From: Candidatus Latescibacterota bacterium
GTDB taxonomy: Bacteria; Latescibacterota; UBA2968
DNA length: 64,000 nucleotides
Assembly (NCBI GenBank): GCA_965204375.1
Contig: OZ241986.1
Coordinates: forward strand, 2,720,001-2,784,000
Direction: 5' to 3'
Shown here: in pieces, positions 39,498 through 43,410 of the stretch
Layout: the number at the start of each line of letters is the position of its first letter
Position numbering within the stretch: the first letter of the stretch is position 1
The notes under the pieces: model-generated
The model's input: only the letters and a program-made list of their open reading frames with translations
Database searches by the model: none
What the model was told of the DNA's origin: nothing
Translations under genes and position numbers: made by a program

Positions 39498-40478
39498 ATG
39501 CCAATGAAGTGGGTGGTCGTGACTGTAACTGTTATAGTGGCACTCGCAATTGTGGGTGCGCTGGGCGTTGCCTACCATCTGAAGACCAATTTTCCCAAAG
39601 CCGATCCGCCTTATAATATTCGCGTATCGGGAACACCCGAACAGGTCGCACGGGGACGTTATTTAGCCAATCACGTCACAGTATGTCTCGAATGCCATTC
39701 AACGCGGGATTGGGTGCATTATTCTGCGCCACCGCTACCGGGCACCGAGGGTAAAGGTGGCGAGGTATTTCCCGAAACAGCGGGATTTCCAGGCACCTTG
39801 ATCGCACCCAATATTACACCGGCAGCTCTGGGAGATTGGACAGATGGCGAAATCATTCGGGCTTTTACCAGCGGCGTAAATAAAAACGGCGACCCACTTT
39901 TTCCACTGATGCCCTATCGCGCATATCGAAATCTCATGCCGGCAGATATTGACGCCATTGTCGCTTATGTGCGTACCCTATCTCCCATTGATCATATCCC
40001 GCCGCGGTCCAAATTGAATTTTCCCATGAACCTGCTCGTACGCACAATGCCAGAACCCTATAAACTCCCCAAATCGGTTGATCGTTCAGACCCCGTTGCT
40101 TATGGCGAGTATTTGGCGACCATTGCCGGATGTGCCACTTGCCATACGCCTCATAATCAACAGAGAGAGCCAGTTGAAGACATGCAATTCGCCGGGGGAT
40201 TTCAATTCCGATTGCCCAGTGGCAAAACCGTGCAATCGGCCAATATTACACCCGACCCAGAAACGGGAATTGGGCATTGGAAAAAAGAGTACTTCATCGG
40301 GCGTTTCAGACAATTTGCCGGGGAAAACGCAAAACACATCCTATTGCAGGATGGCATGAACAGCGTGATGCCCTGGACAATGTACGCGGGCATGACAGAC
40401 GAAGACCTCAGCGCCATATACGACTATCTGCAAACCGTCGCGCCGATCCGAAATGCCGTCGAACGGTTTGTGGAATAA
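39498..40478 (+). CDS. Membrane-anchored diheme cytochrome c
   Basis: N-terminal TM segment, CLECH and CATCH, repeated (P/A)NITP and MP motifs. TTGACA at 39430. Confidence 0.9.
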   Translation: MPMKWVVVTVTVIVALAIVGALGVAYHLKTNFPKADPPYNIRVSGTPEQVARGRYLANHVTVCLECHSTRDWVHYSAPPLPGTEGKGGEVFPETAGFPGTLIAPNITPAALGDWTDGEIIRAFTSGVNKNGDPLFPLMPYRAYRNLMPADIDAIVAYVRTLSPIDHIPPRSKLNFPMNLLVRTMPEPYKLPKSVDRSDPVAYGEYLATIAGCATCHTPHNQQREPVEDMQFAGGFQFRLPSGKTVQSANITPDPETGIGHWKKEYFIGRFRQFAGENAKHILLQDGMNSVMPWTMYAGMTDEDLSAIYDYLQTVAPIRNAVERFVE

Positions 40479-40491
40479 TAAAGAGGAAAAT

Positions 40492-41268
40492 ATGGAATCA
40501 GGTTCCGGAGCATTTAATTTTGATCGCGTCAAAGTATGGTATCATTGCCCTCAAGACCATCTTGCCGACCTGCCAGTGGTATTTGCCCTGCACGGTGCCT
40601 CGCGCAATGCCAGCACCTATCGCGACACCTGGGCCAGCCATGCCGATATGTACGGATTTCTATTATTGGCCCCGGAATTTTCACAGGAGAATTATCCAGA
40701 TGAAACAACGTTTAACCTCGGCAATGTATTTGCCGAAGATGGCACGCGAAATGCCATGGCCGATTGGTCCTTTCAAATAATTGAAGGCATTTTTGATCAC
40801 GTCAAAAAACGAGTGGGACTCCGGGCATCGTCCTATGGATTTTATGGACATTCGGCGGGCAGCCAGTTTGTACACCGATTTTTGTACTTCATGCCTCAGT
40901 CACATGCACATATCTTTATAGCGGCCAACGCCGGATGGTACACCATGCCCACATTCGAACAAACCTATCCCTATGGACTGGCCGGATCGGGTCTGACTGT
41001 CGCGGATTTGAAACGGTCACTAAACCAGCGAGTTGTGGTACTCCTGGGTACTGATGATGTAGATGTAAACCACCCCAAATTGAGGCGCACACCACAGGCG
41101 ATGACGCAGGGCGCACACCGCTTTGAGCGCGGTCACACATTTTTTGAAACGGCAAAACGAGAAGCCGAATCACTCAATGTGTCGTTCAACTGGCAGTTGG
41201 ACACAGTGCCCAACGTGGGACACAACAATGCGGGAATGGCAAAAGTGGGCATTGCGTATTTGGTGTGA
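40492..41268 (+). CDS. Alpha/beta hydrolase
   Basis: LHGASRN, GHSAGSQFVHR, ANAGWY, RFERG and VGH. Confidence 0.82.
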   Translation: MESGSGAFNFDRVKVWYHCPQDHLADLPVVFALHGASRNASTYRDTWASHADMYGFLLLAPEFSQENYPDETTFNLGNVFAEDGTRNAMADWSFQIIEGIFDHVKKRVGLRASSYGFYGHSAGSQFVHRFLYFMPQSHAHIFIAANAGWYTMPTFEQTYPYGLAGSGLTVADLKRSLNQRVVVLLGTDDVDVNHPKLRRTPQAMTQGAHRFERGHTFFETAKREAESLNVSFNWQLDTVPNVGHNNAGMAKVGIAYLV

Positions 41269-41322
41269 TCCGCAGATGAACGCAGATAAAAAAGGGGGCT
41301 GGAGACTGGACAGGCTGACCAC

Positions 41323-41361
41323 AAAAAAAGAATGGCCGCGATCCCTGTTATCGCGGCCATT
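41323..41361 (-). terminator. Intrinsic terminator
   Basis: 12-bp stem AATGGCCGCGAT/ATCGCGGCCATT followed by CTTTTTTT on the minus strand. Confidence 0.88.
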
Positions 41362-41668
41362 TATGTACTACAAGCCATGGAACCTCCTATGTCAGACGAT
41401 CGGGGGAGAGGTCCTAACACCCGACCGCTGGATACAGATTGGTGGCATAGTAACCTCCTCTTGTGAGTATCGCGGCCCGTCATGCCCACTCGCGGTCCGA
41501 TGAACTCTCTATGCCCTGTATGTTTGCGCGAAGGTCTAAAGAACGGTATCCAAGTCGGGTTACCGAATGGTGGTAACGAGTCCGACGCAAAAAAAGACCA
41601 GATGTAAAAACACACGGGCGAGAACCCTTTCGAGCGGAATGCCGCCTGACGATTCATATCGCCTGTCA
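41323..41668 (-). ncRNA. Candidate structured RNA (~350 nt), family unassigned
   Basis: Own promoter and terminator, many long complementary segments, no convincing protein. Confidence 0.55.
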
Positions 41669-41674
41669 ATGTAG

Positions 41675-41704
41675 AATATAACCCGATAAATTGTGGGATG
41701 TCAA
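41675..41704 (-). promoter_or_regulatory. Sigma70-type promoter
   Basis: TTGACA-N18-TATATT on the minus strand. Confidence 0.7.
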
Positions 41705-41814
41705 GAGCCAATTTGAAACTTTTTTATAGGCATCTTTAGATAAATTTATATACTATATATCAGTGTCCAATCCGCGCTAATCATTTTAGCGCCATAGAAC
41801 AGGAGAACGCAGAT

Positions 41815-43410
41815 ATGGGATATGGCAAACGAGAAAATCCGAAATTGTTTAACGACGAGCAAATGCGTCAATATATCGCAGACGGATACGTGGTTTTTAA
41901 ACCAGATGTGCCCGATGACCTGCACGAGACAATTCGCCGAAAACTGCAATTTATGGTCGATGAAGAATTCAATTACGGCAACAATGTGCTACCCCGCGTA
42001 CCCGAGATGGACCGCATCTTGAACAGCCCAGAAGTGCGGGGCGCGCTCATCAGCGTACTCGGCCCGGGATATATTGAACACCCGCATCGATTTTGTCACT
42101 ACATCTCGCCCAACGCAACACAAAGAACACTCGCCCAAAATTGTCATCAAGATTCTTACACCCCCCTGGGACGCCCGCGCCAGCACTACCCGCGCTTTGC
42201 GCGCATCATGTACTATCCGCAGGATTCACCCGTTGAAATCGGTCCCACACACGCGATACCCGGCACGCAGTATCACAGGCGATTGACCGATAAAGACCGC
42301 CAGAACGCCATACCAATAGCCGGTAAAGCCGGCACAGTATCCATCACACATTTTGATATAGGACACGCCGCAGGCATCAATGCCCTTCGCCAACCCCGGC
42401 ACATGATCAAATTCATATACGTGCGCGCGGAAGAACCGACCGAACCCTCGTGGGATTGTCGTGATCATATCTGGCGAAATCCCGAAACATACAAAACACC
42501 GCAGGATCTGCACCTCGTCTGGTCACATATATGGGATTGGCTCTGTGGCAAAAAGAATCGATACGAAAGTTTTCGCACATCAGCCCCCGCAACTTGCAGA
42601 TTGGAAGACCTGCATCACGACAACCTGGACAAACAACTCGCAGCCATGCATTCAATAGCCGCAACAAAAAATACCGATGCAATTTCAGCACTGATTCAAA
42701 AGCTCAATACCGACGATCAGTGGACGCGCCTCACAGCTATATATACCCTCGGCGCAATAGGCCAACCCGCAGTACAGCCTCTGATAGAAGCACTCTTAGA
42801 CGCCGCTATGCATCAAGACGAAGACCCCGTACCCACATCGTGGAACGAAGGCGCCATCTCGATGGAAGATGCCGCCCATGCACTTGTTGCCATCGGCACA
42901 CCTTCACTAAACGCGCTGATTAAATTACTGAACAACTCAAGCGAATGGGCACGCATCAACGCGGCCTTCGCGCTCGGTGAAATGGATTCTCTGGCGACAC
43001 AAGCCGTACCTGCACTCACACGCTGTCTGGACGATGCGTCTCACTGCGTTGTGCGAACAGCCACAGATTCACTGGGCAGCATTCGGCAAAACAGCGAAGA
43101 ATTTGTACCCGTACTCGATCGACTGCTTAAAGTGGGACGCCCCGAATGGCAAATGCCCGACCGACGCGACTGGACGCCCTACGATCAGGTCCGCGTCAAC
43201 GCCGCAATGGTATTTACGCGCCTGGGCAAAGAAGCCGCACCTGCCGAAGCCCTTTTGCTCGACACATTATCCGACCCCAACGGTCACGTCGCTGCATTTG
43301 CCTTAGAGGCACTGCGGCGGATAGGCACGCCTTCGGCAATGGATGGCGTCATGGAATATCTCATGACGCGACGGTGGGATGAAAGCATTGAGAAAGGAAG
43401 AGTGTTTTGA
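41815..43410 (+). CDS. PhyH-like dioxygenase fused to HEAT repeats
   Basis: HQD, GPTHAIPGTQ and H(AAG), followed by repeats such as RLTAIYTLGAIG and RINAAFALGEM. Confidence 0.82.
   Translation: MGYGKRENPKLFNDEQMRQYIADGYVVFKPDVPDDLHETIRRKLQFMVDEEFNYGNNVLPRVPEMDRILNSPEVRGALISVLGPGYIEHPHRFCHYISPNATQRTLAQNCHQDSYTPLGRPRQHYPRFARIMYYPQDSPVEIGPTHAIPGTQYHRRLTDKDRQNAIPIAGKAGTVSITHFDIGHAAGINALRQPRHMIKFIYVRAEEPTEPSWDCRDHIWRNPETYKTPQDLHLVWSHIWDWLCGKKNRYESFRTSAPATCRLEDLHHDNLDKQLAAMHSIAATKNTDAISALIQKLNTDDQWTRLTAIYTLGAIGQPAVQPLIEALLDAAMHQDEDPVPTSWNEGAISMEDAAHALVAIGTPSLNALIKLLNNSSEWARINAAFALGEMDSLATQAVPALTRCLDDASHCVVRTATDSLGSIRQNSEEFVPVLDRLLKVGRPEWQMPDRRDWTPYDQVRVNAAMVFTRLGKEAAPAEALLLDTLSDPNGHVAAFALEALRRIGTPSAMDGVMEYLMTRRWDESIEKGRVF

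Follow-up and report, generated by a model that had tools for sequence, protein, structure and literature searches.

The raiA motif, OLE and ROOL are orphan large structured non-coding RNAs, all of which are in Rfam. Dual-function small RNAs (sRNAs), such as RNAIII/hld, SgrS/SgrT and SR1/SR1P, consist of a structured regulatory RNA that also carries a small open reading frame (ORF) with a ribosome site. Two reports describe Ms1 as a highly expressed RNA polymerase-binding sRNA that lies outside the 6S family (PMC4191392, PMC9130861). The window analysed here, that is, the whole stretch of 64,000 nucleotides taken from a Candidatus Latescibacterota bacterium (contig OZ241986.1, positions 2,720,001 to 2,784,000), contains on its minus strand a transcription unit for an RNA of about 340 nt, which was compared with these systems. 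The RNA is a new family, absent from Rfam. It is of a familiar kind, namely a structured sRNA that is abundant and free-standing and carries an attenuator-like micro-ORF, but the combination and the invariant polyproline start of the micro-ORF are new.

Like 6S RNA (RF00013) and Ms1 of actinobacteria, the RNA is an abundant, free-standing, promoter-to-terminator sRNA with one copy per genome, and it forms a long irregular helix with internal loops. 6S RNA is a single rod of ~180-200 nt with paired ends and a large central bubble, whereas the present rod has a Y-shaped distal end and is closed by helix P2 ~20 nt from the 5' end, with ~150 nt beyond the closing helix. 6S binds the RNA polymerase holoenzyme and templates a product RNA; Ms1 binds the core enzyme. 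Unlike 6S and Ms1, it gave no model match and has a 3' module with a ribosome site and a micro-ORF (ORF1). This module is similar to the trpL and pyrL attenuators, in which a short ORF with a strong Shine-Dalgarno (SD) sequence is followed by hairpins and ends on or inside an intrinsic terminator. It is also similar to ermC in that a second SD sequence would be masked, here by pairing with ORF1 codons. The Pro-Pro start motif resembles the situation in E. coli, where EF-P-dependent passage through polyproline keeps the ribosome coupled to RNA polymerase and suppresses intrinsic terminators (PMC5021804). Unlike attenuators and leader peptides, the RNA has no conserved downstream gene, a large conserved structured domain lies upstream, and it is apparently the terminated RNA that is abundant. 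The likeness to dual-function sRNAs lies in a structured RNA carrying a small ORF; unlike in those, the peptide is unconserved past Met-Pro-Pro, and Hfq was not found in the genome. A complex conserved fold, high expression and restriction to a lineage are shared with the raiA motif, OLE and ROOL. The RNA has, however, no Rfam sequence or structure match to any of the three, and we know of none among them with a conserved ribosome site and a polyproline micro-ORF.

The transcription unit was located at positions 41704-41323 of the window by a scan for promoters and terminators (Table 1). In the following, g and f numbers are working labels for genera and families, g1 is the genus of the window and G000 is its genome. 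With 11 of 12 consensus matches, TTGACA-18-TATATT (41704..41675) reads as a near-consensus promoter of the sigma-70 type. The -35 box was unchanged across 21 genomes of g1 and was TTGAC(A/G) in other genera; the -10 box was constant within g1 and was TATATT, TACATT, TATACG or TACTTT elsewhere. The terminator (41361-41331) was the sole terminator-like site detected on the stretch, and a U-A pair of its stem was C-G in five sequences. The unit occurred in a single copy in its own genome (one contig of 6.34 Mb), and the only plus-strand promoter-like site of the stretch (41727-41754) lay beyond it. The sequence-only reading had described an orphan transcript with this promoter, a 12-bp terminator, two AGGAGG sites and the micro-ORFs MPPICIQRSGVRTSPPIV and MACST; all of these elements were in place, the terminator with its U run, and the word orphan holds in the sense of a free-standing gene.

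The 5' domain was described with two covariance models, R1, which was built on the 5' 195 nt, and R2, a second model from 25 sequences. The 5' module of ~190 nt is a rod that ends in two hairpins, i.e., a Y, and comprises nine covarying helices. When six homologues (g1, g9, g8) were folded independently for minimum free energy (MFE), they shared one architecture: a small 5' hairpin comes first, then P2 as the closing helix, an asymmetric internal loop and P3, and, past a CGAAAnG bulge, P4, a long interrupted rod and two adjacent distal hairpins. In an alignment of 32 sequences, standard pairs filled 97.2% of the cells, whereas the value was 35-47% when the 3' partners were slid by 1-3 columns. 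Moreover, 26 of the 40 pairs changed on both sides, compared with 6-11 in the slid controls and 8.2 +/- 1.9 in shuffled ones, and none of 500 shuffles reached 26. The alignment was guided by the covariance model and thus favours structure; the margin is large nonetheless. P3 was CCGCUCG/CGAGUGG in the window and CCAUCCG/CGGAUGG in g8, P2 was GCGGC/GCCGC in the window and GCGAC/GUCGC in g9, and P4 changed from GGUUC/GGACC in the window to GAUUC/GAAUC in one g9 genome. The single-sequence fold had an MFE of -119.2 kcal/mol (z = -2.25), and 1 of 100 shuffles was equally good. The RNA thus folded just modestly better than the shuffles, and folding energy alone is therefore little proof. Taken with the covariation, the rod/Y domain is a real, complex, conserved and abundant RNA structure. 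It is most likely the functional core of the RNA and is probably part of an RNA-protein complex.

Several helices had been drawn earlier from the one sequence, and most of those in the rod hold. Among these, GCCCGUGUGUUU/AAACAUACAGGGC, GGUCU/AGACC and GUUACC/GGUAAC recurred in the MFE fold and partly in the covariation consensus, and GUCGG/CCGAC became GCCGG/CCGGC in four distant g1 species, a compensatory change judged by eye. The pairing GGGUUCUC/GAGAGUUC was not conserved, and P4 takes its place; P2 and P3, which lie below P4, had been missed. The competing helix proposed between 41560-41546 and 41435-41419 and the pairing of GGCAUAG with CUAUGCC did not survive the comparison, given that by eye their complementarity was gone in distant species and in other genera. 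Two further pairings were rejected. The RNAalifold helix GUCAG (41650-41646)/CUGAC (41395-41391) was invariant in g1 and absent in g9, and a pseudoknot CGUCA/UGACG between the 5' leader and an internal loop was not kept in g9 (by eye).

The 3' module was compared among 35 homologues, some of them near-identical, which have 27 distinct peptides. The most invariant feature outside the rod was AGGAGG, a spacer of 3-5 nt of free sequence, a start codon and CCR-CCN. AGGAGG was present in 34 of the 35 homologues, with AAAGG in the exception, L104, and was positioned 7-12 nt downstream of the modelled domain and ~10-15 nt from the rod. The start codon of ORF1 was ATG in 31, GTG in 3 and TTG in 1. It was followed by CCR-CCN in 34, where the wobble base of codon 3 varied (A, U, G), and ORF1 began with Met-Pro-Pro in these and with Met-Pro-Leu in the L104 frame. 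Residue 4 was Ile in 24 homologues (g1, g9), Gly in 5 (g7, g3, g13, g2), Asp in 5 (g8, g10, g11; one of the five being L104 with its Met-Pro-Leu frame) and Glu in a single metagenome contig. According to the EF-P literature, few contexts stall ribosomes in an EF-P-dependent manner as strongly as Met-Pro-Pro with Asp, Glu or Gly as the next residue. The segment from AGGAGG to CCR-CCN would most simply be a true ribosome-binding site.

The peptide behaved differently from the site. ORF1 was open in all 35 homologues, its length ranged from 9 to 32 codons, and the peptides were unrelated beyond residue 4. The minimum numbers of changes at the three codon positions were flat within g1 and g9 (4/6/5, 11/15/10 and 4/5/4). 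In other words, purifying selection on the ORF1 peptide was not seen in these two genera as a third-position excess, and Met-Pro-Pro alone was common across genera. Furthermore, peptide changes between close relatives tracked compensated stem changes, e.g., Pro to Ser in a g3-like pair. From the flat codon positions and the changes that track stems, there is therefore no evidence for the peptide as the product. It is accordingly very improbable that the RNA is the stable mRNA of a functional micropeptide, encoded by ORF1 and perhaps ORF2, with the rod as a 5' untranslated region that stabilises it or controls its translation. Such an mRNA would agree with the perfect ribosome site, the frame that is open in every homologue, the pattern MPPI-x3-RSG-x3-S-x-P recognisable within g1 and g9, the in-frame 3-nt insertion in four distant species and the change of the stop codon from UGA to UAA in L072. 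Besides the codon-position counts, the unequal lengths and the Pro-to-Ser change, it is opposed by the finding that Arg-Pro(-Arg) in g8, g10, g3 and g13 follows from the GC-rich arm of a hairpin, and that the rod, not the peptide, is conserved across the class.

Downstream structure sets in approximately 20 nt past the ORF1 start codon, in the form of a GC-rich hairpin, a pseudoknot or the terminator itself. In the window, this is hairpin S1, which begins 21 nt (7 codons) past the A of the ORF1 start. Its loop pairs with AGGAGG box 2 to give helix S2, the 5' strand of which is ORF1 codons 12-14, and S1 and S2 together form an H-type pseudoknot that is predicted to mask the second AGGAGG. S1 was paired in 99.5% of cells, with one-sided changes only; S2 was paired in 93.4%, and 3 of its 8 pairs changed on both sides, with C-G to U-A in g9. 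For S1, S2 and the terminator together, 95% of cells were paired versus 28-55% in the slid controls, and there were 6 both-sided changes versus 1-3. The S1/S2 topology was found in g1, g9 and g11; in L101 it was recognised by eye. The ORF1 stop falls between the two 3' strands of the pseudoknot. In g1, g9 and g11, the stop codon of ORF2 abuts the terminator stem; within g1, ORF2 was a frame of 5 codons in 15 of 21 genomes and of 4 codons in L016. A tandem duplication of ribosome site, micro-ORF and hairpin was found in g8 and g10, where ORF2 ends in the terminator loop; the duplicated units of L074 and L103 had near-identical 5' arms, UUUGUGCGGCCGCGA. In g3 and g13, there was ORF1 only, which runs straight into the terminator. 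A geometry in which an ORF meets the terminator is thus predicted for g1, g9, g11, g8, g10, g3 and g13. The earlier proposal of a conformational switch that controls micropeptide translation was right in spirit, since no part outside the rod is better conserved than the ribosome site with its micro-ORF, and box 2 is masked by pairing with ORF1 codons. The alternative helices on which it had relied are unconserved, and the peptides are without coding constraint.

Other repeats and pairings of this region were noted. The 9-mer GGCCGCGAU is common to the P2 3' strand (41477-41469) and the 5' arm of the terminator (41357-41349), both on the minus strand, and the P2 3' strand could pair with the terminator 3' arm; all four strands had changed together in g9 (GUCGC/GCGAC). 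The shared 9-mer may be an anti-terminator or just a common GC-rich motif. In g8 and g10, an alternative helix of 13 bp can be drawn by eye between the P2 3' strand plus linker and ORF1 codons 5-9, and two substitutions between g8 and g10 both keep its pairing. As a general pairing, it was rejected because by eye it was not kept within g1.

Table 1. Coordinates of the RNA and its elements in the window (nt, nucleotides)
Feature	Position	Strand	Description or basis
-35 box TTGACA	41699..41704	-	promoter scan
-10 box TATATT	41675..41680	-	promoter scan; 18-nt spacer
RNA, ~340 nt	41323..41668	-	5' end ~41668, predicted from the -10 box
Rod/Y domain	41469..41664	-	R1 and R2 models, 195 positions, covariation
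P0, small 5' hairpin GGCG/CGUC	41648..41663	-	3 of 4 pairs change on both sides
P2	41645-41641 with 41476-41472	-	covariation-supported consensus
P3	41637-41631 with 41492-41486	-	covariation-supported consensus
P4	41626-41622 (GGUUC) with 41498-41494 (GGACC)	-	covariation-supported consensus
Inner rod	41619-41503	-	distal hairpins 41586-41554 and 41551-41540
AGGAGG box 1	41454..41459	-	candidate ribosome-binding site of micro-ORF1
Micro-ORF1 MPPICIQRSGVRTSPPIV*	41392..41448	-	start AUG-CCA-CCA, remainder unconserved
Hairpin S1 CGGUCGGG/CCCGAUCG	41397..41427 (41427-41420 with 41404-41397)	-	within ORF1
Helix S2	41380..41414	-	GGACCUCU 41414-41407 (S1 loop) with GGAGGUUC 41387-41380 (AGGAGG box 2)
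AGGAGG box 2	41383..41388	-	sequence
Micro-ORF2 MACST*	41361..41378	-	UAA overlaps first base of terminator stem; not universal
Intrinsic terminator	41323..41361	-	12-bp stem 41361-41350 with 41342-41331, then U7 41329-41323

The RNA was also found in RNA libraries. Thirteen runs recorded as RNA contain part of the stretch, and four of them, from four studies, were mapped. The assembled contigs give no strand, exact ends or levels, and the runs were chosen for containing the stretch. Runs X3, X5, X6 and X8-X14, with shares of 0.13 to 0.21 of the sampled words, do not count as evidence. In X2 (labelled as a sponge metagenome), a 276-nt contig within 41383-41657 had a depth of 4202, and the remaining contigs on the stretch had depths of 2.6-13.7. 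In X7 (same label), 534 contigs, many of them strain variants, gave a summed depth of 1.0e5-6.4e5 over 41384-41668, and the flank contigs listed had depths of 4-47. In X4 (same label), a contig with a depth of 330 joined the RNA to the convergent gene at 40453-41268 (plus strand). This gene is labelled the esterase gene here, and its match to the PHB-depolymerase-type esterase family is sub-threshold (15.7 bits, cut-off 23). The X4 contig came from a relative, with the 50 nt at 41271-41320 replaced by 100 other letters. In X1 (labelled as a coral metagenome), the RNA contig (41337-41837) had a depth of 32.7, compared with 46-64 for its neighbours, so that this run lends no support. The transcript is real and is covered at very high depth in RNA libraries from two sponge studies. 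Few transcripts of Latescibacterota symbionts appear to be covered as deeply in sponge RNA libraries.

The contigs of X2, X4 and X7 ended at 41657, 41658 and 41661, respectively, and that of X4 continued into sequencing-adapter letters. No contig of these three runs lay between 41669 and ~41896, although absent cover proves nothing. These ends weakly suggest that the RNA starts 7-11 nt further downstream than the -10 box predicts. With a 5' end at 41657-41661, the 5' strand of P0 would be lost, in conflict with the covariation of P0. The ends inside P0 may be due to 5' processing, loss of terminal bases in assembly or another cause. At the 3' side, the summed depth in X7 dropped ~20-fold over the last 55 nt (box 2, ORF2 and terminator), and the X2 contig ended at 41383. 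This drop could be a shorter mature form or assembly breaks at the variable sites 41375, 41379 and 41387.

The distribution of the family was explored by sequence and by model. By blastn, the RNA was found in 20 of 20 genomes of g1 and in none of 20 genomes outside the genus. In the 16 closest species, it was 87-97% identical to the window, compared with 87-94% for the flanking coding sequences. The RNA was no better conserved than its flanks in these species, and conservation within the genus therefore means little. Four distant g1 species (71-78% identity) had lost one or both neighbours and retained the RNA. With R1, the RNA was found in 26 of 53 genomes of the order, which extended its range to another genus in the family and to one genus in the sister family. 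R2 found one copy in each of 33 genomes, including G000, out of 132 of the class; the 33 belong to nine genera: g1 (20/20), g9 (2/3), g3 (2/3), g2 (1/2), g7 (1/2), g8 (2/2), g10 (1/1), g11 (2/2) and f3/g13 (1/2). R2 found none in g6 (0/15 genomes, mostly complete) or in family f4 (0/76). A strict two-box pattern matched 20 of 168 genomes of the phylum, all inside the order, and the reversed control pattern matched none. Six metagenome contigs were found with a pattern of the rod base and the ribosome site, and five of them also matched R2; the sixth, L227, lies in a coding region without an R2 match and was set aside as chance. The pattern CGCGRRYGNGAGTTGMGGGC, run over all species genomes, was set aside, with at least 120 stretches in many phyla, which is about chance by estimate. 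Among the 80 of its loci that were listed, 5 matched R2 at E <= 0.01, all in genomes already carrying the RNA. As far as searched, the family appears confined to one class of Latescibacterota, and the carriers are uncultured Latescibacterota bacteria of sponges and corals. L164 and L116, which also carry the RNA, have the public titles 'Gemmatimonadetes bacterium' and 'uncultured bacterium'; genomes with equal model scores (30.0 and 42.2 bits) are grouped in the class of the window.

The gene neighbourhood differed from genus to genus. In the window, the divergent neighbour is a PhyH/HEAT-repeat gene (41815-43410, plus strand), and in g1 the RNA lies between divergent and convergent genes. In g9, its divergent neighbour is oxidoreductase-like and its convergent one pdxA-like, names that come from reading the translations. 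In g8, same-strand genes are found on both sides. In L074 (g8), the terminator of the RNA is followed by a ZMP/ZTP riboswitch (RF01750, 1877-1964, plus strand; 53.3 bits with a cut-off of 39) and then by a gene of 320 aa, the translation of which resembles a D-2-hydroxyacid or phosphoglycerate dehydrogenase. In g3, the gene ~70 nt past the terminator is CBS-domain-like (by eye) and has the same orientation as the RNA. A conserved, regulated same-strand gene was thus not found downstream, the gene being convergent in g1 and g9 and having its own ZTP riboswitch in g8. As regards INDEPENDENCE from neighbours, the contexts vary between genera, and the RNA is therefore not the leader of one particular gene. 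The spacer between the esterase stop and the terminator (41271-41320) differed among genomes of the genus (L003, L010). In L076 (g7), a GC-rich stretch with many short inverted repeats lies ~10-200 nt past the terminator and had no Rfam match at the gathering threshold.

These contexts bear on the proposal that the RNA is a cis-acting leader, in which a riboswitch-like sensor and a leader-peptide attenuator govern read-through into a downstream gene. The design of an ORF running into a terminator, as in classical ribosome-mediated attenuators, and the structured domain of aptamer size directly upstream of the ribosome site are compatible with a leader, and so are the g3 arrangement, the GGCCGCGAU repeat of the P2 3' strand and the terminator 5' arm, and the 13-bp alternative helix of g8 and g10. 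With a convergent downstream gene in g1 and g9, a separate riboswitch on the next gene in g8, different neighbours in every genus examined and alternative helices that are unconserved across genera, a leader role is very improbable. Moreover, no aptamer model of the known riboswitch classes matched the RNA or the homologues tested, and the ZTP aptamer downstream of the homologue in L074 was the sole riboswitch detected.

Known RNA families were searched for with Rfam 15. At gathering thresholds, there were no matches in the 64-kb window. In E-value mode, the locus gave noise alone (suhB at E = 1 over the terminator, a long non-coding RNA and a microRNA), and for six diverse homologues, the sole match on the RNA was SorY-like (E = 0.009), again over the terminator. 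The RNase P RNA (RF00010, C1:2530809-2531180, 321.8 bits), transfer-messenger RNA (tmRNA; RF00023, C1:143288-143672, 187.6 bits) and SRP RNA (RF00169, C1:678059-678159, 75.4 bits) of the genome were placed elsewhere, which rules out these three identities. The description of the locus as a novel non-coding RNA stands, as the RNA has no Rfam match, occurs in nine genera, covaries strongly and has deep contigs in RNA libraries. In the titles and abstract openings of the Latescibacteria papers listed, no description of such an RNA was met. Several other roles were rejected. A CsrB/RsmZ-type protein sponge and an Hfq-dependent base-pairing sRNA were discarded because CsrA (PF02599) and Hfq (PF17209), respectively, were not found in the single-contig genome. 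A type I toxin mRNA, which would have a hydrophobic membrane peptide and an antisense RNA, was discarded because the micropeptides are polar or basic and unconserved and the plus-strand promoter-like site lies outside the unit. The long ORF across the unit (listed as 116 aa, 41361..41711; 98 codons in the sequence-only reading, which had doubted it) was rejected as a protein, as had been suspected: the longest stop-free frame ranged from 53 to 121 codons at differing offsets among 21 genomes, 1-nt indels occurred in the region between close species, and the 116-codon frame matched no Pfam family.

The 6S family, to which the sequence-only reading had likened the RNA, was examined separately. 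No RF00013 match was found at E <= 10 on 41200-41850, at E <= 1 genome-wide or at E <= 5 on the six homologues, with a model whose sensitivity is limited, since it detected 6S in just 5 of 14 known genomes in a control. RF00013 was above the cut-off in none of 151 genomes of the phylum, and weak matches were confined to six small f11/f12 genomes. 6S is thus undetected in almost the whole phylum, and its absence from the genome of the window is therefore uninformative. With 6S above the cut-off in none of 151 genomes and no CsrA or Hfq found in G000, the small-RNA machinery of the Latescibacterota is essentially uncharted.

These results concern a second account, in which the RNA is a purely non-coding RNA of a ribonucleoprotein (RNP), similar to 6S or Ms1. 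The rod would bind a protein complex, e.g., RNA polymerase, and AGGAGG...AUGCCRCC and the hairpins would be structural or protein-binding elements without any translation. The very high contig depth, as in stable RNAs, the strong promoter, the long irregular covarying structure with internal loops and the micro-ORF without a coding signature are all in line with such an RNA. Its niche would be unfilled, given that 6S was not detected here and was above the cut-off in none of the 151 genomes, and Ms1 offers a precedent (PMC4191392, PMC9130861). The account is nevertheless somewhat unlikely. The 6S model does not match the locus or its homologues, and the fold, a Y that is extended by 150 nt on its 3' side, has a rod that is not closed by the 5' and 3' ends. 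Moreover, the invariance of the anti-SD complement, the 3-5 nt spacer and the start codon (34/35) is left unexplained. Absence from g6 and f4 is odd for a housekeeping RNA; this argument is tempered in that 6S RNA is dispensable.

A ribosome-gated RNA, the level or 3' end of which is set by ribosomes on the polyproline-start micro-ORF, is the reading tentatively favoured here, as a possibility short of an even chance. The peptide would not be the product, and ribosome engagement itself would matter. A ribosome would load at the invariant AGGAGG site and be slowed at the Pro-Pro start in a manner dependent on EF-P and prolyl-tRNA. On advancing, it would melt the downstream hairpin or pseudoknot; in several genera, this melting would unmask the second ribosome site, and the ribosome would end on or inside the terminator stem. 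Whether the ribosome is held at Pro-Pro or advances would decide whether the hairpin, pseudoknot and terminator stay intact. Translation capacity would thereby control termination or the stability of the 3' end and, through these, the amount of rod RNA. The rod would be the effector, probably binding a protein complex, with RNA polymerase as one candidate partner.

Several observations weigh against ribosome gating. An 18-codon frame is open by chance in ~44% of cases, so that the keeping of the ORF alone is weak evidence. The first base of the start codon varies as A, G and U, which already covers three of four possibilities, and in g1, Met is followed by Pro-Pro-Ile, a context with weaker stalling than Pro-Pro followed by Asp, Glu or Gly. 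AGGAGG/CCRCC could be a motif at the RNA level, e.g., by pairing of GG-A-GG with CC-N-CC, and AAAGG/CCGCU of L104 fits this pairing as well as it fits decay. ORF2 was altered in L004, L014 and L018 and lacked an AUG in L019-L021. In g1 and g9, no same-strand gene follows, and read-through is therefore without an obvious target. The RNA was not found in g6 or f4, and among the 16 closest species its identity was not above that of the flanking coding sequences. As for expression, the X4 contig joins the esterase gene to the RNA and the X1 contig was covered less deeply than its neighbours; contig depth from strandless runs selected for holding the stretch is, moreover, a poor measure of expression. 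A broader claim goes with ribosome gating and is unlikely as it stands: the RNA would represent a new class of riboregulator in which EF-P, prolyl-tRNA or translation capacity chooses between trapping and opening of the 3' structures, or else the RNA, being abundant, would sequester a sizeable share of the ribosomes in slow-growing sponge symbionts. The probability left over belongs to roles beyond ribosome gating, the RNP, the micropeptide and the cis-acting leader.

The Latescibacterota are uncultured, and almost nothing is known of their gene regulation. The combination of a covarying fold, an invariant ribosome site and a polyproline start is undescribed for known abundant bacterial RNAs. 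The RNA of 340 nt is a compact, testable model, expressible in a surrogate host, and a useful marker transcript of the symbionts in metatranscriptomes. If the rod binds RNA polymerase, 6S and Ms1 would be joined by a third type of polymerase-binding RNA. If ribosome gating is true, translation or EF-P status would have a natural sensor within a non-coding RNA.

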